A stretch of DNA of 64,000 nucleotides from a bacterium (GTDB lineage: Bacteria; Patescibacteriota; UBA1384; XYA2-FULL-43-10; JAKAMI01), in contig JAKAMI010000002.1 of the NCBI GenBank assembly GCA_021812945.1, positions 1,047 through 65,046 on the forward strand. Reading direction: 5' to 3'. The position numbers were made by a program, and so were the translations under genes. Below are positions 28,390 through 53,441 of the stretch, one piece after another (position 1 is the stretch's first letter; each line of letters opens with the position of its first letter). The notes below the pieces were generated by a model. It searched no databases, had not been told where the DNA came from, and was given only the letters and a program-made list of their open reading frames with translations.

Positions 28390-29716
28390 GGCTCTATGTC
28401 AAGTGGTGTGGTAGTAGGAGACTGATCGGGATAAATGCCAGCAATGCTTTTCTGATGTAGTTATCTACGTTTCTGAATCCGTACGAAAGACGTTTGATTG
28501 TTTTTAGTTTGGTATTAACTCCTTCGGTGTAGCCGTTAGTGGTGAAACGATCGAAGTAAGCCAGAATCTCATTTTGCCAGCGCATCAACATTTTCAGAAG
28601 TTGCCTGGTCGGTTGATGATTGGAGCCTTTCATCTTGTTAGTCAGGATATTAAAGCTTAGTTCCGCGAGTGTTTTGTTGGGTATCTTGTAGATCCGGCGC
28701 AACTCTTCTTTACAACTCCAGAGCTCGCCTAATTCCGGATATGCTTTGTTAATCTCGTTTAAGGCGACTCGTTCGTTTGGTTTTAGATGTTCTTTCGGTT
28801 TGTCAAAGATGACTTTGGGTAGTTTAACTTTGTCAGTCCCCTGGATTAAAGTTCTTAAGTTAGAAAGTTGACGATTGGCTTCGGCAATTACATGGAAAGC
28901 ATCAACTACGATTGTAGCCCTAGGTAGCTCCCTCTTGATTGTTTGGTAGTAACGCCTGTCCATATCTATACAGACTTCAGTAATGGCTTCCTTGCGCGCG
29001 GCTGGTATGTCTTGAAGAAATTTCTCAACCGTAATCCGACTATCATCCGGTAAGATAGAGATCAGCTGGCGATTTGTGATATCGGTGAAGGTAGGCAACA
29101 TTTTCTGGCCGGAAAAACTATGACAATCTAGACCCATTGAAATTACAATCCCTTCCGGCCAGACACCAACCAGAGGGTTGATTTTGTCGTTTAAGATTTG
29201 TTGAATGGTGGTAAAGCTAGTCTCGGCTAAATCCTGCTGAGTTTTGAAACTGGTTGAGCCCAAGCCCTTGATTATCTGATCTGCGTAGACCAGAGAATAG
29301 TTCTTATTAAGTGGAATTGATTTGTGGCGGTCGGTGGTGATGTGACGACGCCTATCTTTTTTCTGGCACCACCAGCAGAAGAATGCCCTAGTTTTAACTC
29401 TAAGCATAATTAAATTGCCTTGCCAAAACATGTGCTTAACCCGTCTGGGTTTTAAGTGGCGGTTAAGAGTCGTGACGTAGCGTCCGCAGTCTCTACAATG
29501 GACACCTTTAGTTTTTGGTCTTACGGTGATCAACATAACTTTGCCGTTTATCTCCGTATTTTCAACATGGAACTCTTGCAGTTTGAACATCTTTTTGAAA
29601 CAATTCTCCATAGGTAGACTCCTTGTAGTTAAGTGATATTTCCTACAATCAGTCTACCTACTTTTGTTTTACGCATAAAGCGTAGCTAACCGTACCACAC
29701 TGTTTAGTATAGAGCC
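28390..29716 (-). mobile_element. ISL3-family insertion sequence
   Basis: Imperfect terminal inverted repeats GGCTCTATgtcaagtgGTGTGGTA and GGCTCTATactaaacaGTGTGGTA enclose the transposase. Confidence 0.88.
28394..29611 (-). CDS. ISL3-family transposase
   Basis: N-terminal CxxC..CxxC, VCIDM, IVVDAFHV, TNGYTEGVNTKLKTIKRLSYGFRN. Confidence 0.93.
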   Translation of the reverse strand: MENCFKKMFKLQEFHVENTEINGKVMLITVRPKTKGVHCRDCGRYVTTLNRHLKPRRVKHMFWQGNLIMLRVKTRAFFCWWCQKKDRRRHITTDRHKSIPLNKNYSLVYADQIIKGLGSTSFKTQQDLAETSFTTIQQILNDKINPLVGVWPEGIVISMGLDCHSFSGQKMLPTFTDITNRQLISILPDDSRITVEKFLQDIPAARKEAITEVCIDMDRRYYQTIKRELPRATIVVDAFHVIAEANRQLSNLRTLIQGTDKVKLPKVIFDKPKEHLKPNERVALNEINKAYPELGELWSCKEELRRIYKIPNKTLAELSFNILTNKMKGSNHQPTRQLLKMLMRWQNEILAYFDRFTTNGYTEGVNTKLKTIKRLSYGFRNVDNYIRKALLAFIPISLLLPHHLT

Positions 29717-30573: not shown

Positions 30574-31953
30574 TTACTCCTCGTGCCAGTTGACTATTTG
30601 GTAGCTTTTGCTCTTGGGAAAATAAGGCGGCGGAGTATAGAGGAGCCGGTTGTCGTAGTTGTAACCGGCATGGGCGAAACCCCAATAAACAATACCGCTG
30701 CTGGTCCATTGGAACTCTAATCCCCCTTGTTGGGTAATGGCGCCGTAAATATTCAAAGTACCCTTAAGGGGACCGGAAGACTGAAAATAGGCCCGGCCGT
30801 TTTTGGCCAGCATAGCGGCGTCGATGGTCAGGTCGTTGGGGCAGGTCGAAACGATGGGGATATCTTGGTTGGCAACCAACCCCAGCTTGGCAACGGAGTC
30901 GTTTTGAGCATAGGTGATATTGCCGTTAATAAAGATATTTTTACTTGAGACAAGAGTCATCTCCCGATTTTTGACTGTACCGTCGACCCAGACATTGTCG
31001 TCAAAAAACATGAGATTCCCGGCATATGCCTGGCTCGGAAGATAACTTTTTTCAATGTTTATTTGCCCGTAAGCCGCCGTATTACTCTTGTAACTACTGA
31101 CTTTAGTAATGCTGTATTGACTATCCGCCAGGGTTATGTGATAGCCCTGTTTGTTGCTATCGCCGTAGTATTGGTTTTGGGCTATCGCTTTGGACTTCAG
31201 ATCGTTAAAATCAATGTCGGCTAGATTGAACGGAGCAGCGCTATAGACTATCGGGGTCGTATCGAATTTACCCGGACCACCGGCACAGGGGCAAATACCG
31301 CCGGGGCAGTAAGAGTCACTGACCCATTTGGTGGTAAAAGTTGAGTCAATCGAGCAGGTTAGATTGGTTTTACCTTTGATCTCGCCGTAATTACGAATAC
31401 CTTTGTTCGAGGAGTTGACCCAGACGGGGCCGTTGATCACCTCCTGGGTATCGACATAAATCTCGTCGGTTAAAGAATTGATGAAAGCGTTGGCAAACGA
31501 GGGGATGGTCAGATCGGTCGTGATGGTTTTCCGAGTGGTGCTGCCGTTGACCGTTCCGGTAGATTTCAGTTTCACGATGTTGGTATCGTTGGTTGGATAG
31601 ATGAGGAGACTGTAATTACCTATGAGTTTGCCTGAGTTGTCGGTGTAATCATGAGAGTAAGGGCCGTAAGAACCATCCGGATTTAACTGCCGGCAGGCAT
31701 CGGCGGAATTGGCGCTGCAGTTGTCCCAAAAATCGTTCGGATTGTGCTCCAGATGCCAAAGATAATAGTTGATGCCGGCTTCGGCAATGTTGACTGCCGA
31801 AACCTGGCGGCTGTAGAGGCTGGAACGTTTGAGACTGGCGGAGACCATCGCCAGAAGCGCTACCGCCATGATTAAAAGTATGGTGGTAGCCATCAGAATC
31901 CAAGGGAGAAAAGTAGCAGATTTGAAAGGAGTTTTGAGTCTGATTGGTCTCAT
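30574..31953 (-). CDS. PilX-like minor pilin / pilus assembly protein
   Basis: N-terminal hydrophobic helix, AVNIAEAGINYY, C-terminal YNYDNRLLYTPPPYFP; lies in the pil cluster. Confidence 0.75.
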   Translation of the reverse strand: MRPIRLKTPFKSATFLPWILMATTILLIMAVALLAMVSASLKRSSLYSRQVSAVNIAEAGINYYLWHLEHNPNDFWDNCSANSADACRQLNPDGSYGPYSHDYTDNSGKLIGNYSLLIYPTNDTNIVKLKSTGTVNGSTTRKTITTDLTIPSFANAFINSLTDEIYVDTQEVINGPVWVNSSNKGIRNYGEIKGKTNLTCSIDSTFTTKWVSDSYCPGGICPCAGGPGKFDTTPIVYSAAPFNLADIDFNDLKSKAIAQNQYYGDSNKQGYHITLADSQYSITKVSSYKSNTAAYGQINIEKSYLPSQAYAGNLMFFDDNVWVDGTVKNREMTLVSSKNIFINGNITYAQNDSVAKLGLVANQDIPIVSTCPNDLTIDAAMLAKNGRAYFQSSGPLKGTLNIYGAITQQGGLEFQWTSSGIVYWGFAHAGYNYDNRLLYTPPPYFPKSKSYQIVNWHEE

Positions 31954-31972
31954 AAGCCAGATTAGTCTAATG

Positions 31973-32572
31973 TTAGAGGTTGTCTTTCAGATTTCGGATG
32001 TCGACCCGGGTTTTGGATTCCACCTCGCGGCTGGCGTATCGTCCGATCGCTTGGTTGCGAAGATCAATCTGGACCAGCCGGACTTTGGTCACATCGCAAG
32101 GAGTAGCCAGAGCGGCCCCGGTCGAGTCGAAGTAACTGAAGACGGGAGTGCTGTCGGAATTGGTTACATAGGTCGAGACGACCTGATCAACCGATTGGTC
32201 TGCCGGATAAGTAATCCCGCCAAGCTGATCGACGGCCGGCTGGATGGTGGATTTGCTAATTTGCTGCTGATTCTGATCCAGTCCGTAGCTGATTTTTTGC
32301 GCCGGGGAATCAATCGCTCCTTTGTAATAGTAAAAGGTCAATTGGTTCTTGTCGCAAAGTTCTACCGAAGTCGCCGCCTTAATCTCCGGCGTCAGTCTCG
32401 AAAAAGCATTGATTTGTTGGTCGGTCATTTCCAGCTTGAGCTGATTTATCTGATAGTTTTTGAGATTGGAGGTAAAAAATTGGCTGATTATCACCACTAA
32501 AATAGAAATTGCGGCGGCAGCTATCGAAATCTCGATCAGAGTGAAAGCGGATTTTGTTCTGGCTTTTATCAT
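31973..32572 (-). CDS. Prepilin-type (PilW-like) minor pilin
   Basis: Class III signal KSA/FTLIEISIA; C-terminal VDIRN. Confidence 0.8.
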   Translation of the reverse strand: MIKARTKSAFTLIEISIAAAAISILVVIISQFFTSNLKNYQINQLKLEMTDQQINAFSRLTPEIKAATSVELCDKNQLTFYYYKGAIDSPAQKISYGLDQNQQQISKSTIQPAVDQLGGITYPADQSVDQVVSTYVTNSDSTPVFSYFDSTGAALATPCDVTKVRLVQIDLRNQAIGRYASREVESKTRVDIRNLKDNL

Positions 32573-32575
32573 AGT

Positions 32576-33910
32576 CTAGTTGCTGGTTATTTCAATCGCA
32601 TTATTCTTGAGGCTGATTTGGTTCAGATTATTGGTCAATTTCAGATCCCAAGAGCCGTTTGCCGCATTGGTCAAATCAAAAGAAATCGAGGCTGAGGAAG
32701 GAGTGGCATTTACGATGGTTCCCACGATGTCGGCTACACCGGTGTGCGCCAGTCTGGCCTCGGTTAAAGCATCAAGATGCGTGCCGGTAACCACCAGCTC
32801 GACACCGGCAGCCTTGTCCGGGTGTGCAGGCTTGATGTCGGTAACAGTGATGAAAGTGGCGGTATCACCGGTTAGAACGGTTGCGTGGACGGTCTGGCAC
32901 AGATTGGCCTTATAGTCATCGCTCCAACTGGTGATCGAGGGGGGACAGACTCCCGGGCAACCGCCGCCGCTTCCTCCGCCTCCAGAGGTGTAAAAAGCCT
33001 TATAAATCTGAAGCGCGGGAGTCAAGGTTTGATCCGTGGTTTGGAGGGTGGTTTCCACTTGAAGGTAGCGTTGTTGTACGACCACAAAAAGAGAAATCGA
33101 TGAGGCGTAAGGTATTGAGGCTGACCAAGCAGACCAATTTGACGAGTCGGGCGATGTTCTGAAACGAAAGCCAACTTGAGTCTTATCCGGAATGGTGGCA
33201 ACCGGCACGAAAGTATCCCAACTCTTAAAGGAGGGTGTACCGTCAATTTGGCTTGCGGCCGAGACGTGTGTTGCGGTCAATGGTTGCCCGTAAGCTTCAA
33301 GCTCGTATAAATTGGCCACCCATTGGGGCGCCGGCATGCCGCCGCCTTCCAGCTTGATCCTGAGATAGGAGGCGCTGACCGGAGGCGAAATGTCGTATGT
33401 CTGCCAACCTTCGTTTTTATAGCCCATAGTTGTGACTTGAAGAGAAAAGTTGACCCCATCGGTTGAAGTGTAGATGTAGGCCCCGCCGAGCAAGACCTCT
33501 CTGACTACGCGGAACTGATTGATGTTATAGGCTCCGTTCAGTTTGAGCGTCCAAAGCGCGGTCCCTCCACAGCCGACACCCGAACAAATGGTTCCGCCCC
33601 AAGCCGTGTCGATGTTGCCGTCGAAGACATTGGTCTTGTTTTCGTCATGCATGGTCACTGTAAGATTGGTGTTGTCAATATCATAAATCGTTTTCAGGTC
33701 AATTTTGGCGTTGCTCGGATTGATCCTAACGTCGCCGCCGATCGGCGGGTTTGGGTTGTTCAGGTCGGTGTTTACGTTTATTCCGGCTTGCCAATCACTT
33801 TTTGAATCCAGTGTGACCGAGCCTGTGCCGGCCGAAACCGGCAGGACCCGAGTGATCGCTCCCAGAAGAAGCAGGATCAGGACAATTTTGATAGAAGTAA
33901 CTTTTTTCAT
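32576..33910 (-). CDS. Secreted protein with discoidin/F5-8C-like and Ig-like domains
   Basis: Signal peptide, NVFDGNIDTAW..YTSTDGVNF..SYLRI..LYELEAYG, a GGGGSGGG linker and a beta-rich C-terminus. Confidence 0.65.
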   Translation of the reverse strand: MKKVTSIKIVLILLLLGAITRVLPVSAGTGSVTLDSKSDWQAGINVNTDLNNPNPPIGGDVRINPSNAKIDLKTIYDIDNTNLTVTMHDENKTNVFDGNIDTAWGGTICSGVGCGGTALWTLKLNGAYNINQFRVVREVLLGGAYIYTSTDGVNFSLQVTTMGYKNEGWQTYDISPPVSASYLRIKLEGGGMPAPQWVANLYELEAYGQPLTATHVSAASQIDGTPSFKSWDTFVPVATIPDKTQVGFRFRTSPDSSNWSAWSASIPYASSISLFVVVQQRYLQVETTLQTTDQTLTPALQIYKAFYTSGGGGSGGGCPGVCPPSITSWSDDYKANLCQTVHATVLTGDTATFITVTDIKPAHPDKAAGVELVVTGTHLDALTEARLAHTGVADIVGTIVNATPSSASISFDLTNAANGSWDLKLTNNLNQISLKNNAIEITSN

Positions 33911-33918
33911 TCTTTAAA

Positions 33919-34941
33919 CTAATTATTGGTATAGTTATACCTGTCGTGTTCGATGAGCGGAATGAGTATTTTTCCGTTGGCGTCCGTAGTTTTCCATTGA
34001 TCGTACTTGGATTTCGGGTCGGTGCAAAGCAACCGGGCGCTCTGCACTCTGATGGAGGTATTGGGCAGGGGATTTCCGTTGGCATCTTTGACCAAAATCT
34101 CCAAGTCGGTCAGACAGCGAATCTGCATTTGGATTGTAGTCACGGTTTGAACCCGGATAATCGGGTTGAGAGTAGCTCCCGAGGTATCGATAGCGACCGA
34201 ACAAAAGTTTTTGCTCAAAGTCGTGTCGGTGCTGTAATCTTGTTTGGTGACGCTGACTATATAGCTGTTGTCCTCGGCCGGGGGAAGCATCGGTACCATA
34301 ACTTGACCGTAGTCGTCGGTGTAGACGGTAATCCCTTCGGTCGGAAAACCGGAGGCGACAAGGGTCGGGTTGGTGATGGTAACTTTGGCTCCCTGGATGG
34401 GGACGTTGCCAATCTCGGGATTATCGACCACGTTGACAACCAGGATCCCGGTGTTAGAGGCAGTCTCGGCGGCTTTGGAGGCGATGTTGGTGGTGAGGTC
34501 GGAGAGCAGCTTGTTCTCAAGGCGGTTATAAACCGAGACTGTGACTTTTTTGTAGTCGATGGGCGACGTATCGGTATATGGTTGAGGATCGGTGGCCAGG
34601 TGGTCGTAGGGATCATCGAAATATCGGGCATCAATTTTGATGGTGAAGCGGAAACCGGCGTAATCCAGATCCTCGGAATCGAGCAGGTTTTTCTGGGGTA
34701 GAATCGGGCCGTGTTGAGTAGCAATGTCGTCGTAAGGCAAACTCCGAATCATCTCGATTCGATCGTTGGCCAGATTGGCGGCGACCACCCGCATCTGGGC
34801 ATAAGACGCCGAGCGCAAATTTGTCAGCATCAGACTCAAAATCGTCACTGCCACAACACTCAAAACGGCAAAGTCGATGATAACTTCGATCAGGGAAAAA
34901 CTCAGTCCTTTGTTTTGTTTAATGTGTTTAATCTTCGTCAT
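33919..34941 (-). CDS. Prepilin-type (PilV-like) protein with carboxypeptidase-regulatory-like domains
   Basis: FSLIEVII, ANLANDRIEMIRSLPYDDI, DYKKVTVSV, PIQGAKVTI..TDDYG. Confidence 0.78.
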   Translation of the reverse strand: MTKIKHIKQNKGLSFSLIEVIIDFAVLSVVAVTILSLMLTNLRSASYAQMRVVAANLANDRIEMIRSLPYDDIATQHGPILPQKNLLDSEDLDYAGFRFTIKIDARYFDDPYDHLATDPQPYTDTSPIDYKKVTVSVYNRLENKLLSDLTTNIASKAAETASNTGILVVNVVDNPEIGNVPIQGAKVTITNPTLVASGFPTEGITVYTDDYGQVMVPMLPPAEDNSYIVSVTKQDYSTDTTLSKNFCSVAIDTSGATLNPIIRVQTVTTIQMQIRCLTDLEILVKDANGNPLPNTSIRVQSARLLCTDPKSKYDQWKTTDANGKILIPLIEHDRYNYTNN

Positions 34942-35040: not shown

Positions 35041-36243
35041 TTACTGTGCTCCCACCAGACCGTAAATCGGTTGCAAAACGGCAATCAGCAAAAGGCCGAT
35101 GCCGGCGCCCAGGACAATCATCATCACCGGTTCTATCAGGCTGGAGAGGTTTTTGGTGATATTGGTCACGTCTCTTTCATAAAAATCGGCCAGGGTGGTG
35201 TAGACTTCATCCATTTTGCCGCTCTTCTCGCCGACCATGGTCAGCTGGTGAATCATCGAAGGGAACAGTTTGCTCTCTTTCAGCACCGCCGATAGCGCCT
35301 TGCCATTTTCAACCTCTTTGGAGATTTTCTCGATCTCCCGATGGTAAAGGACATTGGGAATAACGTCCTTGACCACTTTGAAAATCTTCAAAATCGGAAT
35401 TCCCGAAGCGGAAAGGCTGGCAAAGGTCCGGGCGAAGTTGGCCATATAGGATTTGGTGTAAAGGTTGCCGAAGATGGGCAGTTTCAGGAGTAATTTATCA
35501 AAAAAGAGCTTTCCGGAAGGAGTCCGGTGGAAAGCAACTAAGCCGGCGATCAAAGCAGCTAATCCGGCCAGGAGATAGTACCAATAGGCAGTCATCAGAT
35601 CTCCCAAACCCATAATGACCTTCGTAATCGCCGGCATCTCCACTCCGGAGTCGGCGAAAATGGATTTGAGTTTGGGCAGGATGAAGATTAGAACAAAGAC
35701 GGCTACCCCGATGAGCGCCACAGTGATAACGGCCGGATAAATCAAAGCACCGCGGACCTTGGCGACCAAGTCGTAAGTTTTATCCATTTGTTTGGCTTGA
35801 CGTTCCAGGACTTCGTCAAGCTTACCCGATTCTTCGCCGGAAGCCACGATGCTCAGGTAGACCGAATCGAAAATCTCCGGAAATTTGGCTAAAGCGGAGG
35901 ATAAGGTGCCGCCGCTTTCGACCTCGGGTATGATCTTTTCAAGCGCTTGGCCGAGGGCCTTGCTGTTGGTTTCCTCCTGCAGAGATTTGAGAATGGTAAC
36001 AATACCCAGACCCGAGCGGATCATGACGGCCATTTGCTGGGTAAAAACGATTTTTTCTTTGAGCGGGACTTTACTCTTAAAGATCGTCAAGTTTAAACTC
36101 AAACCCTTGCTCATCGGTTCAACTTTGGTGACGAACAAACCTTTTTTCAAAACCAAAGTGACGGCATGATCCTGCGCTGCCGCTTCAACCGTTCCCGATT
36201 CCTCTTTACCTTGGCGATCCTTGGCGCGATACTTGAATAGCAT
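35041..36243 (-). CDS. pilC: Type IV pilus / T2SS inner-membrane platform protein (PilC/GspF)
   Basis: FKYRAKD, FTQQMAVMIRSG, GEESGKLDEVL, ALIYPA, GEKSGKMD, LIEPVM. Confidence 0.92.
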   Translation of the reverse strand: MLFKYRAKDRQGKEESGTVEAAAQDHAVTLVLKKGLFVTKVEPMSKGLSLNLTIFKSKVPLKEKIVFTQQMAVMIRSGLGIVTILKSLQEETNSKALGQALEKIIPEVESGGTLSSALAKFPEIFDSVYLSIVASGEESGKLDEVLERQAKQMDKTYDLVAKVRGALIYPAVITVALIGVAVFVLIFILPKLKSIFADSGVEMPAITKVIMGLGDLMTAYWYYLLAGLAALIAGLVAFHRTPSGKLFFDKLLLKLPIFGNLYTKSYMANFARTFASLSASGIPILKIFKVVKDVIPNVLYHREIEKISKEVENGKALSAVLKESKLFPSMIHQLTMVGEKSGKMDEVYTTLADFYERDVTNITKNLSSLIEPVMMIVLGAGIGLLLIAVLQPIYGLVGAQ

Positions 36244-36364: not shown

Positions 36365-38842
36365 CTAGTCTTTTGTTACCCTCCAAACCTCTTCCAGACT
36401 GGTAAGACCGTCGAGGGCCTTGTCGATGCCTTCCTGTTTCATAGTCAACATCCCGTCCGCTATGGCGGCCTCGGTGATCTTGGACGAGGTGGCCCGAGCC
36501 AGAAGCAGTTCCTGGATTTTCTGATTGACATCCAAGACTTCGTATATGCCAATACGTCCTTTGTAGCCTGTGCCGTGACAGTTGTCACAACCCTCTCCAC
36601 GGTAAAAAACCAGCTTCTTGCCCTCCCATTTTTTGCGGGCATCCTCCGGCATTTTGGCGATCTCTTTCTTGACTTCCTCGATCTCTTTGTCAGTAACTTT
36701 GAACTCCTTTTTGCAGTCTTTGCAGATTTTGCGAGCCAATCTTTGGGCGATAACAGTATTGAGCGATGAAGTAATCAGAAACGGTTCCACTCCCATATCG
36801 ATCAGACGAGGACCGGCGCCGGCAGAATCATTTGTGTGTAATGTCGACAGTACGACATGACCGGTCAAGGCGGCGTTTACCGCCATTTCAGCGGTGTCCC
36901 GGTCGCGAATCTCTCCGATCATCACCACATCGGGATCCTGGCGGAGGATGCTGCGCAGGCCATTGGCAAAAGTATAGTTGATATCAGGATTGACTTGACT
37001 CTGATTGATGCCCGGCATCTGATACTCGATCGGGTCCTCCAGCGTCACGATATTGACCGCGACGTCGAGCAGGCGGTCGATGATGGCGTAAAGCGTGGTT
37101 GTTTTGCCGCTTCCGGTAGGACCGGTGACCAGAGTCATGCCGTGGCTTTTGTGAATACTGTTTTCCACCACGTCAAAACCGCGTCCCCGCAGGCCAAGGT
37201 CTTTGAGGGAGAGAATACCGGTCGATTTGTCCAGGATTCTCATCACAATCTTTTCGCCGAAAGCGGTCGGCATGGTTGAGACTCGAAAGTCGACTTTGCG
37301 GTTGTCGATCATCATCTGAATACGCCCATCCTGAGGTAGGCGCGATTCGTCGATCTTGATTCCCGAAAGAATTTTGATCCTCGAGGTGACCGAAGCCTGG
37401 ACCTCTTTAGGGATGGTCACTTTTTTCTGCAGAACACCATCCTCGCGGAAGCGAACATCCAAACCGTTTTCCGTCGGTTCGATGTGAATGTCCGAAGCCA
37501 GTTCGCGCACGCCTCTTTTGATTAGAGAAGTGACAATCCGCGAGACGGGAGCGTCCTCGGTAATTTTCTCGATCTTTTTCTCGGTAATCTCTCTTTGCTC
37601 TTTGCCGTCTTTGGCCTCGTCTTCGCTTTGGCTGATTGCCTCCGAAACTTCCGCCTCGACACCGGAGTATTGATCCAGAATCCGGTTAAGATCGGTTTGC
37701 ACCGTCAGTTTGGGAATGACTTCCCGCCCCGTTTGTTTTTTGATAAGCTCGACGGTTTCCAGGTCCTCCGGATCAATCATAGCCACCGTGAGCACGCCGT
37801 CGTTATCGGCGACCGGAACTACCTGATATTGGCGGGCGATTTTTTCGGGCAGTAAAGATAAGATTTTTTTATCGACGGTGGTCTTGGAGAGGTCGATGAA
37901 CTGCACTCCGGCGGCTCCGGCGTAGGGATCGCCGGCCGAGCTTTTTGGAGAAATCTCCGGATTGTCTCTTAGCGCTTGTATTTCCGATGGAGTTATCTCA
38001 TCCGGCGAGACGTTGGAAAGGTTGGTTTTCTCAGGTTGAGCCGCAGGCTGGCCCTCGACGGCGGACGAGAGGATATCGTCTTTGGTTTTTTTAACGAAAT
38101 CTTCAAAACTTATCCGAGGGCGATTTTGGGATTTGGTAATCTCGCCGATCTCATTCTCGGTCAGACTGGCCGGTTTTTCTAAATCGGCATCCGGTTTCTT
38201 GGCTTCGTTAAGCTCGGCTACCGCTACGTTGTCCGGTTGAGCGTCGGATTCGGGCGTGTCTTTGATCGGGAGCGATTGTTCCGCCAACTCTTTAAAGCTG
38301 ATGGGGGCCTGAACTTTCTCGTTGTTAACTTTCTCGTTGTTCTCGGCGAGACGATCCGCGGATTTATGATCTTCCGCTTTCAACTTCAAATCACCGGCAT
38401 CAAAAGAGGCAACCTCTCCTTCTGGTTTCGAAGGCTCAGAGTGATGAATCTTGACCTGTTCCACGGCTTTTGCCGGCTCAAGGTTACGAACAAAAATCTC
38501 ATGGTCTTTTTTGTCCGGCTCGCGGCGGTTGTTCGAGGTTGTCTTCGCTTCCGGCTCGGGAGCGTTTTTGTTGACATGTTTTTTGACCTGCGGGCTGGGG
38601 TGCCACTTGATGACATTGGTTGGAAGCATCACAATCTTATGGCCGCGGCCCCTGGGGTCCCGGATGGTTTTAGAGGGATATTTGTGAGTCAAAAAAGATC
38701 CGAAATTGGAAAAAATCAGTTTCCCCCCGTCTCTCAAAGTCTGCCCAAGACCGTCAATGAAAGCTTTGACGATCTTTTTGGCTTTTTTTTGCGAAATCCT
38801 TTCAGCTCTGGCTAAAGCTTTGATCAGGTCTTCAGTATTCAA
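36365..38842 (-). CDS. pilB: PilB/GspE pilus assembly ATPase with an N-terminal HU/IHF-like domain
   Basis: ASDIHIEP, RLPQDGR, TGPTGSGKTTT, TLEDPIEY, LRQDPDVVMIGEIRD, STLHTN and CxxC motifs; TTG start at 38842 after GGAGG. Confidence 0.92.
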   Translation of the reverse strand: MNTEDLIKALARAERISQKKAKKIVKAFIDGLGQTLRDGGKLIFSNFGSFLTHKYPSKTIRDPRGRGHKIVMLPTNVIKWHPSPQVKKHVNKNAPEPEAKTTSNNRREPDKKDHEIFVRNLEPAKAVEQVKIHHSEPSKPEGEVASFDAGDLKLKAEDHKSADRLAENNEKVNNEKVQAPISFKELAEQSLPIKDTPESDAQPDNVAVAELNEAKKPDADLEKPASLTENEIGEITKSQNRPRISFEDFVKKTKDDILSSAVEGQPAAQPEKTNLSNVSPDEITPSEIQALRDNPEISPKSSAGDPYAGAAGVQFIDLSKTTVDKKILSLLPEKIARQYQVVPVADNDGVLTVAMIDPEDLETVELIKKQTGREVIPKLTVQTDLNRILDQYSGVEAEVSEAISQSEDEAKDGKEQREITEKKIEKITEDAPVSRIVTSLIKRGVRELASDIHIEPTENGLDVRFREDGVLQKKVTIPKEVQASVTSRIKILSGIKIDESRLPQDGRIQMMIDNRKVDFRVSTMPTAFGEKIVMRILDKSTGILSLKDLGLRGRGFDVVENSIHKSHGMTLVTGPTGSGKTTTLYAIIDRLLDVAVNIVTLEDPIEYQMPGINQSQVNPDINYTFANGLRSILRQDPDVVMIGEIRDRDTAEMAVNAALTGHVVLSTLHTNDSAGAGPRLIDMGVEPFLITSSLNTVIAQRLARKICKDCKKEFKVTDKEIEEVKKEIAKMPEDARKKWEGKKLVFYRGEGCDNCHGTGYKGRIGIYEVLDVNQKIQELLLARATSSKITEAAIADGMLTMKQEGIDKALDGLTSLEEVWRVTKD

Positions 38843-39338
38843 TTTGCCCCTCCCGACCGCAAGGCGGTCGCCCCCTCGCGAAATTACGAATAAAACACAA
38901 AAATACAAAAGCGCGAATAATTCAATCAACCCCAATTATACCCCAATCGATAGGAAAATAAACGGATTATGATCTTATTGTATAATTAAGTAGTTAGGGA
39001 CTGCATATTTTCCTAGCCTCGATAGTCTAAGTTATTTATGACCCACTTTTCTTGTATAATTTTAGGGCTGGTCGACGATCCAATGTAAAAAAATGCTTTT
39101 TCGTCCGTTTGTTTTTCTCTCGGCCACCCACTCCGTACCCTGCCTTCCGCACGAGCGACTCTCTAACGTCGTCCCTCGGCTCCAGGCGCCGGCCTTCGTA
39201 AAACAAACGATCTCAACGCATTTTTGTCATTATTATTTAGACGAGCTAACCAGGTTCTTAAAACCAACTTTACAAACTTTATTACTTTTTACTTTATAAC
39301 TTCATGAACTTTTAACTTTATAAATTTCAACTGATTCT

Positions 39339-40892
39339 ATGAAGCAGGCTCTATATCAAAAATACCGGCCGAAAGATTTTTCGGCAGCCATCGGCCAAGA
39401 GAAAATCGTCCAGACGCTCAAAAACGCCTTAAAAAGCGGCCGCACCGGTCACGCTTATCTTTTTGCCGGCCAGCGAGGAACCGGCAAAACAACTTATGCC
39501 CGAATTTTGGCTCAATCGCTCAACTGTCAAAAACCCAAAGACGGGAATGGGCCGTGTTTCGATTGTCAGTTTTGCCAAGCCGCCGGAAAGGGTCAAGCCA
39601 TCGACATTATCGAGATAGACGCCGCCTCCAACCGCGGTATTGACGAGATTCGCGATTTGCGCGAGAAGATCAGATTTGCCCCGACTCTGGGGAAATATAA
39701 GGTTTACATCATCGACGAAGTCCATATGCTGACCAAAGAAGCCTTCAATGCGCTTCTAAAAACCCTTGAGGAGCCGCCGCCGCACGTTGTCTTCATCATG
39801 GCAACGACCGAAGCGCACAAGCTGCCGGCCACTATTCTTTCCCGAGTCCAGCGGTTCGACTTTGGCCGGATTCCGATCGCCGACATTACCAAGAATTTAC
39901 GCCTGATTGCCGATAAAGAGAAAATTGAAATCGACGACGAGGCTTTGTTGATCATCGCCGGCAAAGCCGACGGCAGTCACCGAGACGCTATTTCGCTCTT
40001 GGAACAGATTAAATCGTACGCTACCAAAATCTCTGCCAAGGAGGTGGGGGAGGTTTTGGGTTTGGTTGGAAATGATCTGATTTATCGGCTCCTAGGTTCA
40101 ATGGTTGAGGCTGATTTGAAGCAAGCGCTGGTTCAAATCGAGAGCTACTACGAGGGCGGTTTTGATTTGAGCCAGCTGGCCTTGTCGCTGGTGGAGACAA
40201 TCCGAAAAGCGATGCTCTTAAAATCGGGGGTCATTGAAAAATCGGACTTGACTAAGGAAGAGGCTGAGGGCATAGCCAAGTTGGAAAAATTATCTGCCGA
40301 CCGACTGATAGTCGGTATTGAACAATTATCTTCCGCAGGCAGGGAAACCAAGATTAGCTCGATTCAGAGTCTGCCGCTGGAGCTGGCAGTGTCGAGAATC
40401 GTCAAGGCATGGGATATGAACGATTCCCCTACGAAATTACAAATAGATCAACGAAAGCACAAAAGTACTAATGATACAAATTCCCATCAACCCACCTCGC
40501 GGGAGTCAAAGCCCACCCCCGAGGTGAATTCGGACATCAACAATAAAACAATGAAGCAATCGGACAATGAAACTGACGCAACTTTAGATGATAGGACTTG
40601 GAAAGAGATTCTGGATCGGATAAAGTTGCAGAACCATACCTTGCAAGCGCTGCTTCGGGATATTAAACCCCTCGGGATTGTAGAAGGAAGACTCAAGCTT
40701 TGCGCTAAGTTCAAATTTCACAAGGACAAGGTTTCCGAGATTGGAAATCGCCAGTTAGTTGAAAAGATAATTACCGAGGTGACGGGACAAAAACTGCCAA
40801 TCTTCTGCGAGCTGGCCGATGAAACCGCCGGCAAGCGAAAAGGGCTGAAAGAAGATGAGCTGTTGCAAGTAGCGGAGGAAGTGTTTTCATAA
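39339..40892 (+). CDS. dnaX: DNA polymerase III subunit gamma/tau
   Basis: ALYQKYRP, GQRGTGKTT, EIDAASNRGIDEIR, IIDEVHML, FNALLKTLEEPP. Confidence 0.95.
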   Translation: MKQALYQKYRPKDFSAAIGQEKIVQTLKNALKSGRTGHAYLFAGQRGTGKTTYARILAQSLNCQKPKDGNGPCFDCQFCQAAGKGQAIDIIEIDAASNRGIDEIRDLREKIRFAPTLGKYKVYIIDEVHMLTKEAFNALLKTLEEPPPHVVFIMATTEAHKLPATILSRVQRFDFGRIPIADITKNLRLIADKEKIEIDDEALLIIAGKADGSHRDAISLLEQIKSYATKISAKEVGEVLGLVGNDLIYRLLGSMVEADLKQALVQIESYYEGGFDLSQLALSLVETIRKAMLLKSGVIEKSDLTKEEAEGIAKLEKLSADRLIVGIEQLSSAGRETKISSIQSLPLELAVSRIVKAWDMNDSPTKLQIDQRKHKSTNDTNSHQPTSRESKPTPEVNSDINNKTMKQSDNETDATLDDRTWKEILDRIKLQNHTLQALLRDIKPLGIVEGRLKLCAKFKFHKDKVSEIGNRQLVEKIITEVTGQKLPIFCELADETAGKRKGLKEDELLQVAEEVFS

Positions 40893-40992
40893 TATCTCAG
40901 ATCTCAAAGTTCAAATCTCAAAATGACAATGAAAAATTTTGAATTTTAAACTAAACTTTGAAATTTGAACTTTGAGATCTAAATTAACTTTT

Positions 40993-42399
40993 ATGCCTAG
41001 ATCACGTAAAAAATCTACCCCGACGACTGCCTCCGGCCTCAAGGTTCCGCCGCAAAACGTGGAAGCGGAGGCCGCGGTTTTGGGAGCCCTGCTCCTGGAC
41101 AAGGATACCATCATCAAAGTGGCGGATCTTTTGATATCGGATGATTTTTACCGCACCGATCATGCCTTGATCTACGAGTCGATGCTGGGGCTATTCGAGA
41201 AGCGAGTACCGATAGATCTAGTCACATTAACCGAGAAGCTGGAGTCGCAGAAACAGTTGGATCAGGTCGGCGGCTCATCCTATCTGGCGAGTTTGGTCAA
41301 CGGAGTTTCGACTGTTGCTAACGTGGTGCATTACGCCAACATTGTCCGAGAAAAGTCCATTCTGCGCCGATTAATATCAGCGGCTGGTTCCATAACCGAG
41401 CTGGGATTTTCGGAAATCGAAGAGGTTTCCAAGGTTATGGACCAGTCCGAGCAATTATTATTTGCCGTTTCCCAGAAATATCTCAAGGACAAATTTATTC
41501 CGATCAAAGACGTTTTGGCCGAGGCCTTTGACCGGATCGACAAGATCCACCGCGACAAAGGCTCGCTCCGTGGCGTACCGACCGGCTTTAAAGATCTGGA
41601 TCTGAAGCTAGCCGGACTGCAAAAATCCGACTTGATCATCATCGCCGCCCGTCCAAGTATGGGCAAAACCTCGCTAGTTATGAACATTGCCGAGAACATT
41701 GCGGTGGAGGATAAAATTCCGGTCGGCATTTTTTCGCTGGAAATGAGTAAGGAACAGCTGGTCGAAAGACTATTATCTTCCCAATCCGGGATTGATTCTT
41801 GGAAACTGAGGACCGGAAATCTCTCAGATGAAGATTTTCCCAAGATTGGCTACGCCATGGGAATACTCTCAGAAGCTCCATTATTCATTGATGACTCACC
41901 GGTGGCTACAGTTATGGAGATTCGGGCCAAAGCCAGAAGATTGCAGATGGAGCAAGGTTTGGGCCTGATCATCATCGACTATCTGCAACTGATGGAGGGC
42001 ACACGCCATGGTAGCGATTCTAATCGGGTGCAGGAGATTTCCGAGATCTCTCGTTCGCTGAAAACTCTGGCCCGCGAACTTGAAGTGCCGGTAGTGGCCT
42101 TGTCCCAGCTCTCCCGCGCCGTCGAATCCCGCCAGCCGAAAATCCCGATGCTCTCGGACTTACGTGAATCAGGCTCCATTGAACAGGATGCCGACGTGGT
42201 GATGTTTATTTATCGCGAAGACTATTATGATAAAGACACCGATCGCAAGGGGATCACCGACATTTTAATTCGCAAGCACCGCAACGGTCCGACCGGCGAG
42301 GTCGAACTGTTCTTCCACCCGGAGCAGATGCGCTTCAGGGATCTGGACAAGAAACGAGTCGACATTCCGCCCGAGATCCTAAAGGAACAAACGGACTAA
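40993..42399 (+). CDS. dnaB: Replicative DNA helicase
   Basis: PPQNVEAEAAVLG, AARPSMGKT, FSLEMS, IDYLQL, LSQLSR, SDLRESGSIEQDAD, KHRNGPTG. Confidence 0.97.
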   Translation: MPRSRKKSTPTTASGLKVPPQNVEAEAAVLGALLLDKDTIIKVADLLISDDFYRTDHALIYESMLGLFEKRVPIDLVTLTEKLESQKQLDQVGGSSYLASLVNGVSTVANVVHYANIVREKSILRRLISAAGSITELGFSEIEEVSKVMDQSEQLLFAVSQKYLKDKFIPIKDVLAEAFDRIDKIHRDKGSLRGVPTGFKDLDLKLAGLQKSDLIIIAARPSMGKTSLVMNIAENIAVEDKIPVGIFSLEMSKEQLVERLLSSQSGIDSWKLRTGNLSDEDFPKIGYAMGILSEAPLFIDDSPVATVMEIRAKARRLQMEQGLGLIIIDYLQLMEGTRHGSDSNRVQEISEISRSLKTLARELEVPVVALSQLSRAVESRQPKIPMLSDLRESGSIEQDADVVMFIYREDYYDKDTDRKGITDILIRKHRNGPTGEVELFFHPEQMRFRDLDKKRVDIPPEILKEQTD

Positions 42400-42737
42400 A
42401 CTAAGTTCATAAACTAAGTTCATAAAGTTAAAAGTTATAAAGTTGAAAGTTAGAATGAAGAGGTGAAATCTTTTGTCATTCTTAAGCTAATGTTTGTCAT
42501 CCTGAGCCTCAAAGCGAAGAGTCCGCGCGGAGATTCTTCACTAATCGTTCAGAATGACAAAGATATGACGCGTAACAAAAGAGAGAGGCATTAACCTTCG
42601 GAATTACCTTAGGTGTGGCCTCTCATCGTGATTGTAAAGTATTGGCAGTGATGAATAATAAGACCAGTAATAGTAAATAAATTCATAAAGTTAATATATA
42701 TCAACTTGTTTAGCCTCGGGTTGGCAACAGCTGGTTC

Positions 42738-42766
42738 TTGACACGGTTTGCTAGAAAAGATACAAT
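42738..42766 (+). promoter_or_regulatory. Sigma70 promoter preceding a ~750-nt non-coding leader
   Basis: TTGACA-17 nt-TACAAT. Confidence 0.7.
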
Positions 42767-43426
42767 GATACAATCCCAAAGAAAAAAGGGAGGTAACCAC
42801 ACGGATCTTGACACAGATGAAACACAGATAGCACATTAACAATGAGGTCCCGAAATAAATTCGGGATGACAATATCGAAAAAGTGTCTGGAGGGACAGCT
42901 TTCGCTAAGTCGAAAGTTCGTAAAGTTACAAAGTTTGTAAAGTTACCATGATGAATCCCTCCGGCAGAGGGATTTTTTGGTAGGAGAGATGGGGATATCG
43001 GTTTGCCCACCCGATAAACACTAAGCATTTTATAAATCGTTAAAAGAAGTGGTTTGTAAATAGTTTAGTCCCCAGCTCTCCCATCGAAATAAGTTAAAAG
43101 TTGAAAGTTATAAAGTAACGAGTAAACTAATAACAGAAACAAAAAAACAGAAATTCAGAAAATCGAAACAAACAGAAAATCAGAAAAGAGCACATTGACA
43201 AAAGGATGGGAAAAAATAGGGAAGTTGCAAAAAGCAACCTTAGTGTAAAATACAATTTTATATTAGGGATGCCACAAAGCTAGAGATCCTTCGCCGATTC
43301 TTTCAGAATCGCTCAGGATTTCGCTAAAAGCGAAACTTTGCGACACCCCTAATGGGCGTAAGCTTTACGACCGGGTCATAATTTAAAATTATATTATCCC
43401 GACAAGTCGATTACCAGTTTGCGCCC

Positions 43427-43466
43427 AAACCAAGAAACATCCAGCAATGAGGGTGTTTTTTGGTTT
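43427..43466 (+). terminator. Terminator-like hairpin
   Basis: aaaccaagaaacatcc...gggtgttttttggttt. Confidence 0.5.
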
Positions 43467-43522
43467 AGAAAATCAAATTGGTCTAATTAGACTAATTGGT
43501 CAAATTGGTCTAATATTCAGGT

Positions 43523-44089
43523 ATGGGTGGTCACCAGGATCTGATAGTCTATCAGCAAGCGGTGCTGATTTTTGATCTCAACGTGCAGTTTTGCCGTCGG
43601 TTTTTGGACCCCATCAAAGATCGTCGAACTATCGAGCAAATGGAGCAAGCGTCTCGCAGTAGCAAGCAGAATATCGTTGAAGGCTCTCTTGGAAAAAGCC
43701 TGAAAATGAACATAAAGTTGACGGGAGTTTCACGGGCGTCGTACGGAGAATTGCTAGAAGACTACAAGGATTTTTTGCGGATACGGAATCTGAAGCTATG
43801 GCCCAAAGAAGATGAAAGAGTTCGGGAAATTCGAAGCATGCGTGTCCAAACCAATAAGGCAAATGAGTCTAATGCGGCCGATTGGTCCAATTGGACAAAT
43901 GATGCGGAAAGATTCGCCAATTTAATGGTAACTTTGATCTCTAAAGAGAACTATCTTTTGGATTGTCTTTTACGGTCTTTGGAAAACAAGTTTGTAACCG
44001 AGGGCGGTTGTGGTGAAAATTTGTTTAAGAAAAGGCTAGAGGAAAGGAATAGGACCAATAGGACAAATTGGTCCAATCGGGTCAATTAG
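43523..44089 (+). CDS. Four-helix-bundle protein (23S rRNA-IVP/bAvd-like, suffix-domain type)
   Basis: DLIVYQQA..RRTIEQMEQASRSSKQNIVEGS..VSRASYGELLEDYKDFLR..LENKFVTEGG..ENL. Confidence 0.85.
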   Translation: MGGHQDLIVYQQAVLIFDLNVQFCRRFLDPIKDRRTIEQMEQASRSSKQNIVEGSLGKSLKMNIKLTGVSRASYGELLEDYKDFLRIRNLKLWPKEDERVREIRSMRVQTNKANESNAADWSNWTNDAERFANLMVTLISKENYLLDCLLRSLENKFVTEGGCGENLFKKRLEERNRTNRTNWSNRVN

Positions 44090-44111
44090 TCTAATAGGTC
44101 AAATAAGACTA

Positions 44112-46187
44112 ATGGGTATTTTGGAGCAACTTAATCCTGAACAACGTGAAGCTGTGACCACCACCAGTGGTCCAGTTTTAGTGCTCGCGGGTGCAGGCAG
44201 CGGCAAAACTAGAGCGTTGACCTACCGGATTGCTTATCTGATTCAAGAAAAACGGGTTTCACCGTATTCGATACTAGCCGTGACCTTCACTAATAAGGCA
44301 GCGCACGAAATGAGTAACCGGGTTGCCCGCCTGCTCGCGTTTTCGTTGAATAAGACCAATTGGCCAAATGAGTCTAATTTGACCAATAAACTTCCTTGGC
44401 TGGGGACGTTTCACTCCATTTGCGTCAAAATTCTAAGACGCGAAGCCAACCACCTGGGTTACGAGCGCAGCTTCACTATCTACGACGATCAAGACCAGCA
44501 AGCGGTCATCAAAAAGATCTTACGAGATCTGCAGCTCGACCCTAAGAAAACTTCACCATCATCGATATCTTACTTTATCTCCGGGGCCAAAGCTGAACTT
44601 ATGACAGCGGCCGAATATACCAAGTATGCAACTTATGGCTTTCAGAAAATTGTCAGTGAGGTCTATTTCGCTTATGAAAAAGCTCTGAAGCGAGCCGAGG
44701 CAATGGACTTTGACGACCTAATTCTAAACTGCGTGCGCCTATTTCGTGAGTTCCCGGAGCTGTTAGAAAAATATCAGCGTCAGTTTCAATATATTTTAAT
44801 CGACGAGTACCAGGACACCAACCACGCCCAATACGTTTGGGCTAAATTGCTGGCTTCAGACCATCACAATATTTGTGTGGTGGGCGATGATTTTCAGTCG
44901 ATCTATTCTTGGCGCGGGGCGAATTTTCGCAACATTTTAGACTTCGGCAAAGATTATCCGGAAGCTAAAATTATCAAAATGGAGCAGAACTATCGCTCGA
45001 CCAAATCAATTCTGGGTGCGGCGCAGGGGGTGATAGAAAAGAATAAGGATCGAACCGACAAGAAACTTTGGACCGAGAACAAAGAGGGGGTGCCGGTAAC
45101 GGTTTTCGAGGCGGGGAGCGACCGTGACGAAGCGGACTTTGTCACTCGCGAAATTCGCGCTCTGAGAATGAACAGCCTAAATTACTCAGATTTTGCCATT
45201 TTATACCGTACTAATGCTCAGTCGCGGCAGTTTGAGGAGACTTTTATCCGCTACGGCATCCCGTACCAAATTATCGGCGGAGTCAGCTTCTACCAACGGC
45301 GCGAAGTGAAGGATGTCATCGCTTACCTGCGCTACATTCACAATCCGCGAGACCTGGTCTCGTTGGAGCGGATTATAAATGTACCGGCTCGGGGGATTGG
45401 GCCAAAAACAGCGGAGCTGCTTTTGGAAGTCAAAAGTCAAAAGTCAAAAGTCAAAAGTATGGAAGAGCTACCAGATAAGGTCAGAAAGTTTGAGGAGATG
45501 ATTACCAGTTTGCGTGAATACTATCAGAAACATTCCATAGTCGAGCTAATAGATACCTTGGCTCGAATGACGGGGTATAAGGATTATCTGCTGGACGGGA
45601 CGCCGGAGGGAGAGGCGAGGTGGGAAAACATTGAGGAGCTGATGAACATTGCGGCGGCACAAGCCGCCCCCTACGAAAATACAAAAGAAGGCACGAAAGT
45701 ACGAAAGTACAAATCTGGAGACGAACCGGTACCTCAGAATACCATTCCAGCCTCTCGCTCCGTCATTCCTGCGAAAGCAGGAATCCAGACTGGATCCCAG
45801 ATCGAGTCTGGGATGACGAGTAGCCGCGAGACGGATAATCAACTCGAGGAGTTTCTTGAGCGGGTTAGTTTGTATCAAGACTCGGAAAAATTGGACAAAG
45901 ACCGCGATGCGGTGGTTTTAATGACTTTGCACGCAGCCAAGGGCTTGGAATACGATACGGTTTTCATCGCCGGTCTGGAGGAAGGTATTTTCCCGCACTC
46001 CAGAAGCTTGACCGAAAAAGATCAGTTGGAGGAGGAGAGACGGCTTTGTTACGTCGGCATGACCCGGGCACAGAAAAGGCTATACCTGCTATATGCCCGC
46101 CAGCGGCTTTTTCATGGCAACATAATGGCGTCTCTCCCCTCAAGATTTTTGGGGGAAATACCAGCAGAGTTCACAGACATTCTGTGA
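44112..46187 (+). CDS. pcrA: ATP-dependent DNA helicase PcrA/UvrD with in-frame repeat insertions
   Basis: LNPEQREAV, AGAGSGKT, TFTNKAA, DEYQDTN, VGDDFQSIYSWRGA, QNYRS, TLHAAKGLE, EERRLCYVGMTRA. Confidence 0.95.
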   Translation: MGILEQLNPEQREAVTTTSGPVLVLAGAGSGKTRALTYRIAYLIQEKRVSPYSILAVTFTNKAAHEMSNRVARLLAFSLNKTNWPNESNLTNKLPWLGTFHSICVKILRREANHLGYERSFTIYDDQDQQAVIKKILRDLQLDPKKTSPSSISYFISGAKAELMTAAEYTKYATYGFQKIVSEVYFAYEKALKRAEAMDFDDLILNCVRLFREFPELLEKYQRQFQYILIDEYQDTNHAQYVWAKLLASDHHNICVVGDDFQSIYSWRGANFRNILDFGKDYPEAKIIKMEQNYRSTKSILGAAQGVIEKNKDRTDKKLWTENKEGVPVTVFEAGSDRDEADFVTREIRALRMNSLNYSDFAILYRTNAQSRQFEETFIRYGIPYQIIGGVSFYQRREVKDVIAYLRYIHNPRDLVSLERIINVPARGIGPKTAELLLEVKSQKSKVKSMEELPDKVRKFEEMITSLREYYQKHSIVELIDTLARMTGYKDYLLDGTPEGEARWENIEELMNIAAAQAAPYENTKEGTKVRKYKSGDEPVPQNTIPASRSVIPAKAGIQTGSQIESGMTSSRETDNQLEEFLERVSLYQDSEKLDKDRDAVVLMTLHAAKGLEYDTVFIAGLEEGIFPHSRSLTEKDQLEEERRLCYVGMTRAQKRLYLLYARQRLFHGNIMASLPSRFLGEIPAEFTDIL

Positions 46188-46289
46188 ACATCTGCCCCCT
46201 CGCAAAAGTACAAATGGCGGCACGAAAGTACAAAAGTACAAATAATTCCATAGGACTGACTCTGGACTTTTGAATCAAGGACTCTTATA

Positions 46290-47315
46290 ATGGGTCTACT
46301 TGGAGGATTCATCAAAAGGATCTTTGTCTCTGTGGTCGTCTTGCTGGCGGTAGGGCTGGTCTTTAGAGTCATCTACTCGGCCATGGCCAGCGACCACCTC
46401 AATGTAAATTCGGTCAAAACTTATCCTTTCATTATCAAAGTAACTGATCCGGACGGTCAGGTTTCTTCTTTTTCGGGATCAAGTTCTGTTTCAAAACCCG
46501 AGGAGATCGCCGCAGATTTGGGCACGGTCGTTTATCCTGAAGACAAGGTAAAAATTTTCCCGAATGTGGCGATGATGATGGGGGCGACTATTGAGGTCAA
46601 GCGGGCTCCGAAAGTCTATGTCACGGACTGGGGCAAAGAGACTCTTTACCGTTCGTTTGCGCCGACGGTCGGCGATTTTTTAAATGAAAAAGCTATAGAT
46701 ATAGGCCAGGACGACAAGTCCAACTTTTCGATGAGTACTGTGATTGTCGACAGCACCAGCATTAAAATCACCCGCGTGGCGGTGACGATAGTTGCGGAAA
46801 ACAAGCCGATCGTTTTCAAAACGGTGACAAAAAACGACCCAAACCTCGATGAAGGCCTAACCCGGATCGAAAAAGCCGGAGTCAACGGCAATACCAAGCT
46901 GACTTATCAAGTTACCAGAGAAAACGGGGTGCAAGTGTCTAAAATCCTCATCAAGACCGAGAAAACGGCTGATCCCCAGGATCAGATCCAATACAAAGGT
47001 ACCAGGCCGGTAATTACGGTTCCATGCAATTATAAATCAATAGTAATTACGGCCGCTATAAATAGTGGCTACAGCGCAAATAAAATTTGTAACCTTATGA
47101 TGAATGAAAGCCAGGGTAACTACTTATCTGTCGGAGAGTATGACGGAGTTCAGTATTACGGACTATTTCAATACACGATAGGTGATGGAAATGGGGGGTC
47201 TTGGGCTGATATGAGCCAAAAAGCCGGTTATGGTGGTTCAAGATGGAGTGACCCAACGGCACAGATCATGACAACCGCATGGGCTTTGACTCACGGCTAC
47301 GCATCAAAGTGGTGA
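46290..47315 (+). CDS. G5/DUF348-domain protein with a lysozyme-like (Rpf/SLT-like) C-terminal domain
   Basis: N-terminal TM, G5-like repeat (DPNLDEG..GVNG..YQVTRENG..KGT), C-terminal MMNESQGN..GLFQY..W; upstream of rsmA like rpfB/yabE. Confidence 0.75.
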   Translation: MGLLGGFIKRIFVSVVVLLAVGLVFRVIYSAMASDHLNVNSVKTYPFIIKVTDPDGQVSSFSGSSSVSKPEEIAADLGTVVYPEDKVKIFPNVAMMMGATIEVKRAPKVYVTDWGKETLYRSFAPTVGDFLNEKAIDIGQDDKSNFSMSTVIVDSTSIKITRVAVTIVAENKPIVFKTVTKNDPNLDEGLTRIEKAGVNGNTKLTYQVTRENGVQVSKILIKTEKTADPQDQIQYKGTRPVITVPCNYKSIVITAAINSGYSANKICNLMMNESQGNYLSVGEYDGVQYYGLFQYTIGDGNGGSWADMSQKAGYGGSRWSDPTAQIMTTAWALTHGYASKW

Positions 47316-47372
47316 CGATGTTGTCATTCCCGCTTTAGGCGTGCGAATCCACTAATAAATTAGGAATCGGGT

Positions 47373-47397
47373 AGATTCCCGCCTTCGCGGGAATGAC
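47373..47397. repeat. ATTCCC-N8-GGGAAT palindrome (dRS3-like)
   Basis: agattcccgccttcgcgggaatgac; a near-identical copy at ~50735-50759. Confidence 0.75.
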
Positions 47398-48499: not shown

Positions 48500-48574
48500 C
48501 ACTTCGCGTTCAATTTGTATTTTCGTAAGATTTGTAGATTCGCTAAGGATATAGAGGTCGCTAAGGAGGGGATT

Positions 48575-50011: not shown

Positions 50012-50777
50012 ACCATAAACAGCCTAAAGGCTGGGCTCAAGGTTTTCGTGGGAGTCTAAGCTTTAGCTTGTTTTCAGCCTAAAGGCTGGGCTACAAAATA
50101 AAGAGCCCACGCTTCAGCGTGTTAGACAGATAGTTCTCTTTCAACCCGTAATCCGAGGCGTACGGCCTCGGACTTCGGTTCGTATGGCCAGGGCGGTGAC
50201 CCTAGACGAGTTCGGTGAGGGGTTTCCCCAGGGTGAATTCCATGAGCTCCCTCAGTCTGACGAAGTGCAGCCTGGTCGCACCGTCCTCGATGCATCGGTG
50301 ACAGGCATTCCCGGCTCCCGGAAGTCCGTGGCAAAAGAGCCGATGGGTCAAGGCACAGAAGATTTCAGTGAACGGCTCGGATGCCGAAAAGCTGCTTGTT
50401 AGTGCCGGTGCGACTGGCACATTGTCTCGAGCGAGGGCTTCGGGGTGTGTGACCCACTGCCCGCTTGCTGCGATCAGTTCCGGGGCAACAATCTTCACGA
50501 AGGGTAGAATGTCTTGCAACCACGATGAGTGGCGAGACACTGATGACGCATTGGGATGTTGCTGGTGTGTGGCTGTATTGGGCAAAGGTGATCCCTCCCG
50601 GATCGGCGATATGGGGTACTTAAGAATAATGATAAAGAGTTTAGTTGACCAATACAACCCCTATTTTTGGATGATTGCTCAAAAGCCAATTTCTGCTATA
50701 GTAAAAATAATGAAAATTGATCAATCTATAGGGTAGATTCCCGCTTTCGCGGGAATGACAACAAACGCGTAAATCGT

Positions 50778-51488: not shown

Positions 51489-51527
51489 TACTTGCAATTT
51501 TGACTTTTGACTTTTGAATTATCAATT

Positions 51528-53420: not shown

Positions 53421-53441
53421 TTTGACGGCAGGTCGCGACAT

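Follow-up and report, generated by a model that had tools for sequence, protein, structure and literature searches.

The window, a 64,000-nucleotide stretch of patescibacterial DNA, carries at positions 36365..38842 on the (-) strand a single uninterrupted ORF of 825 aa with a TTG start at 38842. A purine-rich Shine-Dalgarno-like sequence, GGGAGGGG, lies 5 nt upstream of this start (38847..38854, (-) strand), and the relatives of the gene start at the same position. The ORF and its profile matches define an HU-linker-MshEN-N2D-ATPase fusion, all parts of which are read from the (-) strand. The HU/IHF-fold domain (aa 1-91; 38570..38842) has a net charge of +13 and carries T3, N46, G48, Y55-P-S-K58, P63 and P83. 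It is followed by an acidic linker (aa 92-311; 37910..38569), predicted to be disordered from its pLDDT, the MshEN domain (N1D; aa 312-396 by Pfam; 37655..37909), the N2D domain (aa 428-540; 37223..37561), delimited by Pfam, the AlphaFold2 model and structure matches, and the ATPase domain (36368..37210); the Pfam T2SSE match covers aa 428-821. All ATPase motifs were intact, namely Walker A (574), the Asp box (601), Walker B (641), the His box (666) and the four cysteines of the tetra-Cys motif (707/752). The linker measures 220 aa with a net charge of -15 and a pLDDT below 50 at 94-244 and 254-311; among relatives its length ranged from 11 to 311 aa.

Bac_DNA_binding (PF00216) matched aa 1-91 along the full model (1-90/90) with 55.4 bits and an E value of 7e-15, the cut-off being 22.4. 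AlphaFold2, run with a 39-row alignment, gave aa 1-90 the HU topology at a pLDDT of 81-93, with two helices, a three-strand sheet bearing a beta-ribbon arm and a C-terminal helix. The linker was unstructured and the pTM was 0.48, indicating that no fixed domain arrangement is predicted. A profile search with the domain found 38 PDB sequences, all of them HU/IHF-like, and the ESM Atlas search returned HU clusters only, at 0.82-0.84, which serve as leads only. For aa 1-100, the profiles of the HU-CCDC81 and HU-HIG clades, PF18175 (26.1 bits, cut-off 35) and PF18291 (16.3 bits, cut-off 26.2), both stayed under their cut-offs. A unitig of run X4, a run of the same single study as the assembly that is not flagged as its source run, spans 37209-39600 with zero differences, covering HU, linker, MshEN and N2D.

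The first-pass annotation, made from the letters alone, had read one uninterrupted ORF of HU, a ~220-aa acidic linker, MshEN and ATPase, and the 825-aa frame, the Pfam matches and the measured linker agree with it. The checks that it proposed, an HMM search with Bac_DNA_binding and T2SSE, read support across the linker and an architecture survey, all came out in favor of the fusion. Its statement that the N-terminal ~90 aa follow the HU pattern held for the domain as a whole, but the motifs are NFGSF and DPR, not GFGxF and RNP.

Directly downstream of the fusion lies the platform gene pilC (35041..36240, (-) strand; T2SSF 201.7 bits), and then four pilin-like or adhesin-like genes of 340, 444, 199 and 459 aa (30574..34941, (-) strand) with weak N_methyl, Ig-like and F5/8 matches, the label pilin-like being our reading of their N-termini. 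An ISL3-family transposase is located at 28394-29611, just past the end of the pilus cluster. On the other side, dnaX (39339..40892, (+) strand) is divergent from the fusion gene and is followed by dnaB, an adjacency that is conserved in the class. Between 38700 and 39500 there were no Rfam matches and no tRNA. Within 18 kb (39339-56924), the (+) strand carries dnaX, dnaB, a UvrD/PcrA helicase, recG and a ComEA-like gene.

The assembly is 912 kb long and 96% complete. Beyond the fusion, the genome contains two further PilB-like ATPases, one PilT and two pilC genes. By our reading of the gene list, contig C10 holds a cluster of pilB, pilT, pilC, a prepilin peptidase-like gene and pilins; this is the main pilus cluster, which makes that of the fused gene a second one. 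The main PilB (L004; C10:23494-25884) has 796 aa, with apparent repeated MshEN-type segments, an acidic spacer and no HU. An ordinary free HU gene follows rny-ymdB on contig C39 (19038-19319). Just downstream of it, a 318-aa frame (C39:17751-18707) begins in a way that we take to resemble the Cas12a N-terminus. Contig C26 carries a reverse-transcriptase-like ORF (4845-5813) beside a 1050-aa ORF, a pair that presumably resembles a diversity-generating retroelement.

The motor part found its best solved-structure matches in PilB of Geobacter and PilF of Thermus. It did not reach the TIGR02538 equivalog cut-off (563.1 vs 675.65 bits), and the ordinary CPR PilB of genome G004, from outside the class, was likewise under it at 581 bits. 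The motif RLGxx(L/V/I)(L/V/I)xxG, which we take to be the c-di-GMP-sensing motif of MshEN, was present in 0/110 proteins checked, the window protein included.

We then surveyed the class of 162 genomes, fetching the locus in 141 of them by HU match or dnaX position. A diverged fused HU was found in 44/44 genomes of the order, in frames of 234-944 aa. Across the 141 genomes, 61 (15 families) had HU with an intact ATPase and 39 (8 families) had HU with a decayed or absent one; three loci were cut by contig ends, seven had a PilB without profile-detectable HU, and 31 had nothing upstream of dnaX, five of these with less than 2.6 kb of sequence. The rule for an intact ATPase was relaxed after inspection to admit SSLHT, STIHT, I/VEDP and GPTSSGKT, which moved seven HU-bearing and three HU-less copies into the intact group. 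Two of the seven HU-less PilB proteins show HU-like helices by eye, and one scores an E value of 0.007. A fused HU was located elsewhere in four of the 31 genomes with an empty locus and in one genome outside the 141. In one genome (G503, L250), HU-MshEN and N2D-ATPase are split over two frames that overlap, owing either to a frameshift or to an error of assembly. Close relatives also occur in two Candidatus Berkelbacteria records (L073, L091), and database entry P0012 has the same three Pfam domains, named only as PilB of a Berkelbacteria bacterium.

Genomes searched outside the class yielded no case of the fusion. In a 401-genome sample of the phylum, frames longer than 200 aa came only from class members among the 150 matches listed of 342, and in genomes outside the class with two HU copies both were stand-alone in 15/15 checked. 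The presence of the fusion in every genome of the order, its copies throughout the class and the X4 unitig rule out an assembly artefact; the fusion is real and conserved over one class, and it is both a new PilB variant and a new HU architecture. A quick tree placed 97/103 fused domains apart from a group formed by all 41 free HUs and six mostly long-branched fused ones, a topology compatible with a single origin of the fused HUs. In G004, ymdB, hup, pilB and pilC are consecutive on one strand, possibly the layout that preceded the fusion. Outside the class, hup was near pilB in three cases within 6.5 kb among ~31 genomes with listed positions, which is near chance by a rough estimate; only in G004 were the two directly adjacent.

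The HU domain has been retained through repeated decay of the motor. When 8 loci with less than 600 nt downstream were omitted, pilC was present at 57/58 loci with an intact ATPase, 0/35 with a decayed one and 6/6 with HU-less copies. In family f3, the mean identity of the HU domain was 60, 57 and 58% for intact-intact, intact-decayed and decayed-decayed pairs, respectively; the corresponding values were 76, 38 and 33% for N2D, 68, 35 and 30% for the ATPase domain, and 69, 67 and 70% for the DnaX control. On a DnaX tree of 53 rows, the decayed state required six changes, of which at least four were forced by well-supported branches. The reduced forms are diverse: pseudo-ATPases with broken Walker motifs in f3, f153 and f11, HU with a lone N2D in f2 (12/12 genomes; hhalign 92.8%), a weaker N2D trace in f170 (hhalign 43.9%), and 165-aa HU-MshEN proteins in two f12 genomes. 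The model of the f2 HU-N2D protein matched IHF/Hbb (Z 6.2) and, with a higher score, the GspE N2D (Z 14.5; rmsd 1.6 over 93 residues). At least one pilC elsewhere was detected in 43/44 genomes of the order, indicating that the main pilus system is kept. Since HU persists in 39 genomes that lack a working ATPase and an adjacent pilC, its job is independent of pilus dynamics; conversely, the seven PilB copies without profile-detectable HU at the locus have retained pilC, which indicates that the motor can do without HU. A near-intact fusion in G404 (L030, L218) has GPTSSGKT in Walker A and a pilM-like gene in place of pilC, which its sister G242 keeps; this copy is possibly at an early stage of decay.

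The DNA-binding face of the fused domains has been remodelled. The accessible text of PMC6523023 and PMC9900698 cites Arg55 as important or essential for DNA binding by the HU of B. stearothermophilus, and names Lys3, Gly46, Lys83 and Pro63 as further DNA contacts. The window domain retains the canonical arm-tip and basic features (Pro63, K58, net +13), and has T3, N46, Y55 and P83 in place of Lys3, Gly46, Arg55 and Lys83. Arg55 occurs in 6/103 fused domains vs 38/41 free HUs, with Y, F, H, L or W at this position in 76/103 fused ones. The same holds for Lys3 (23/103 vs 39/41), Gly46 (32/103 vs 38/41) and a basic residue 83 (9/103 vs 31/41), whereas Gly48 is found in 103/103 fused domains, a basic residue 58 in 91/103 and Pro63 in 62/103. 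The median net charge was +7 for fused domains with an intact ATPase, +8 for those with a decayed one and +9 for the 41 free HUs.

Taken together, we tentatively favor the reading that an HU-type dimer holds the protein on the nucleoid, its dimer body being the constant part and its DNA contact being altered or supplied by the free HU. The product would be the assembly ATPase of the second type IV pilus cluster, and its N-terminal HU-fold domain would form HU-type dimers, either with itself or with the free HU of the cell, whether the motor turns or not. Through the 220-aa flexible linker, this dimer could extend to the DNA from a hexamer docked on PilC at the membrane. The changed arm sequence, Y55-P-S-K58, would weaken or alter DNA recognition, and the dimer body is probably the most constant part of the HU domain. 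Where the pilus cluster was lost, HU with a pseudo-ATPase, N2D or MshEN may keep the nucleoid-side job and might also dock on the main pilus system. The retention of the HU part after decay of the motor makes it likely that this part tethers the protein to the chromosome or the free HU, and a tether of the window protein itself to chromosomal DNA through this domain is plausible. HU domains tethered to the envelope, described in the accessible text of PMC5499826, provide a precedent. A complex prediction of two HU domains scored 0.28, the mark being 0.42, which counts neither for nor against the dimer.

The loss of Arg55, Lys3 and the basic residue 83 in most fused domains counts against a nucleoid-holding role, as does a net charge of 0 or less in 11/103 of them. 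These losses, with those of Gly46 and Lys83, would fit an HU fold that no longer binds DNA and acts as a protein-binding or oligomerizing module, capturing the free HU, a linker peptide or other cargo. This alternative is possible, if somewhat unlikely. It gains from the fused domains that were kept although armless (f5, f164, f165 and two f12 genomes, f12-g24) or acidic (f13, with a charge of -8 to -14), and from a recurrent IPI[KR]I-like motif, (I/V)P(I/V)(K/R)(I/V), seen 28 times in the linkers of L007-L066 vs 2.7 in shuffles with a pattern chosen after looking at the linkers. HU-CCDC81 fused to dynein (accessible text of PMC5499826) is its precedent. However, most copies are basic and have full arms, a basic residue 58 and often Pro63. 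By eye, a motif of the linker type is also visible in reduced forms and in the HU-less PilB of f6 (N-termini of L109, L110, L112 and L113).

The same alternative draws on free HUs that were kept in an armless, neutral-to-acidic state. In f5, f164 and f160, both HUs are armless, the free one being 56-74 aa long and net negative. In f147 the free HU is armless and the fused arm has lost its proline, and in f13 the free HU is canonical while the fused domain is acidic; in each of these two families a single partner has changed. Armless free HUs of 56-74 aa were seen at L226, L227, L228, L234, L235, L237, L238, L242 and L258 (near position 1500), in families f147, f5, f164 and f160; 5/8 of the neutral-to-acidic ones stand beside ymdB. 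Co-decay of fused and free HU, assessed by an independent-pairs test on a PilB tree of 45 rows with at most three per family except for f5 and f6, comprised 2-3 independent same-direction pairs and was not significant (p 0.5). Co-variation of the two therefore points to heterodimers as a lead and not as a result. The fused copy was alone in 10 genomes and the free copy in 4. No free HU was found in five f6 and f152 genomes with HU-less PilB, nor at the assembled ymdB locus of G056, G481 and G536, and a PF00216 match was absent altogether in 35/162 genomes of the class. Long proteins related to the free HU were sought and none scored, which is weak evidence.

An IHF-like, site-preferring regulator at the divergent dnaX-dnaB/pilB promoter, coupling the replication genes with the state of the pilus, is improbable in our judgement. 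Among the loci picked by HU match, dnaX was divergent in 52/60, the other eight being six contig ends and two with dnaX 1.7-3 kb off; PilB was within 5 kb of dnaX in 0/37 genomes outside the class, and the adjacency outlasts the loss of pilC. But this may be inherited gene order, as HU-less PilB copies keep it, and four fused copies lie away from dnaX. We are more doubtful still that incoming DNA, imported by the pilus and the ComEA/ComEC system, is handed to the HU domain, a variant raised in the first-pass annotation. Saccharibacteria are naturally competent through comEC, according to the accessible text of PMC10633639. As the annotation had noted, a ComEA-like HhH gene is in the window (56442-56924, (+) strand; HHH_3 87 bits); however, it is 17.6 kb from the fusion, and the persistence of HU in 39 genomes without ATPase and pilC speaks against a link of the HU-motor to incoming DNA. 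The retraction ATPase PilT is in the other cluster, on C10. Transforming DNA, moreover, reaches the cytoplasm single-stranded via ComEC and is then taken by DprA, which also counts against this proposal. Finally, a neutral read-through fusion, which could arise from a layout like that of G004, where hup immediately precedes pilB-pilC in the same direction, or an assembly artefact is scarcely credible, given the conservation in 15 families with an intact motor and the fact that decayed lines have preserved HU better than the motor.

Returning to the nucleoid-holding dimer, a bolder version of it can be formulated. A dedicated HU paralogue on the pilus ATPase would pair with the free HU and hold the chromosome to the base of the pilus, the point at which the Berkelbacteria-class cell grips its host; the gene would be co-regulated with dnaX-dnaB, and the anchor would be so useful that the motor was pared down several times to a pseudo-ATPase or an HU-N2D adaptor docking on the main pilus machine. 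As a whole, this scenario is unlikely. The class-wide fusion is nonetheless a direct candidate link between the pilus machine and the nucleoid, and the series from intact motor through pseudo-ATPase, HU-N2D and HU-MshEN to armless and acidic HU illustrates a route by which a motor can be reused as a scaffold. To our knowledge, chromosome positioning and segregation in such tiny cells are largely open. In the one CPR group tested, type IV pili proved essential for living attached to the host (accessible text of PMC10633639), and CPR pili and competence are also treated in PMC6744442.

The first-pass annotation knew of no description of this architecture, and we likewise found no account of an HU domain joined to the ATPase of a pilus or secretion system in the searchable full-text literature, which mostly excludes subscription papers. 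The closest account, PMC5499826, reports in its accessible text HU fusions with membrane and peptidoglycan-binding domains in Bacteroidetes and with dynein-VII in some eukaryotes, and proposes that some fused HU domains have left DNA binding; neither the word pilus nor the word ATPase occurs in its main text, and its supplements may list an HU-PilB architecture. Like the HU-CCDC81 and HU-HIG proteins described there, the present protein is a derived HU domain fused to other modules, but its partner is a pilus ATPase and it has no transmembrane segment.

Compared with the HU/IHF nucleoid proteins (PF00216; PDB 1IHF, 1P71 and 1HUE), the fused domains share the whole fold, G48, F47, F50, the basic residue 58 and mostly Pro63. 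They differ in sitting on a motor, the window protein being an 825-aa fusion and not the canonical stand-alone form of ~90 aa, in having Arg55, Lys3, Gly46 and Lys83 mostly replaced, and in coexisting with a separate stand-alone HU in the window's genome. With PilB/GspE (PF00437 and PF05157; TIGR02538 and TIGR02533; PDB 5TSH, 5ZFR and 5OIU), the fusion shares MshEN, N2D, the ATPase motifs, the tetra-Cys motif and the adjacent pilC, and it is 46% identical to 5TSH with a target TM-score of 0.89. Unlike in type IVa PilB, the N-terminal slot is taken by HU and a long linker, and the TIGR02538 match begins at profile position 54.
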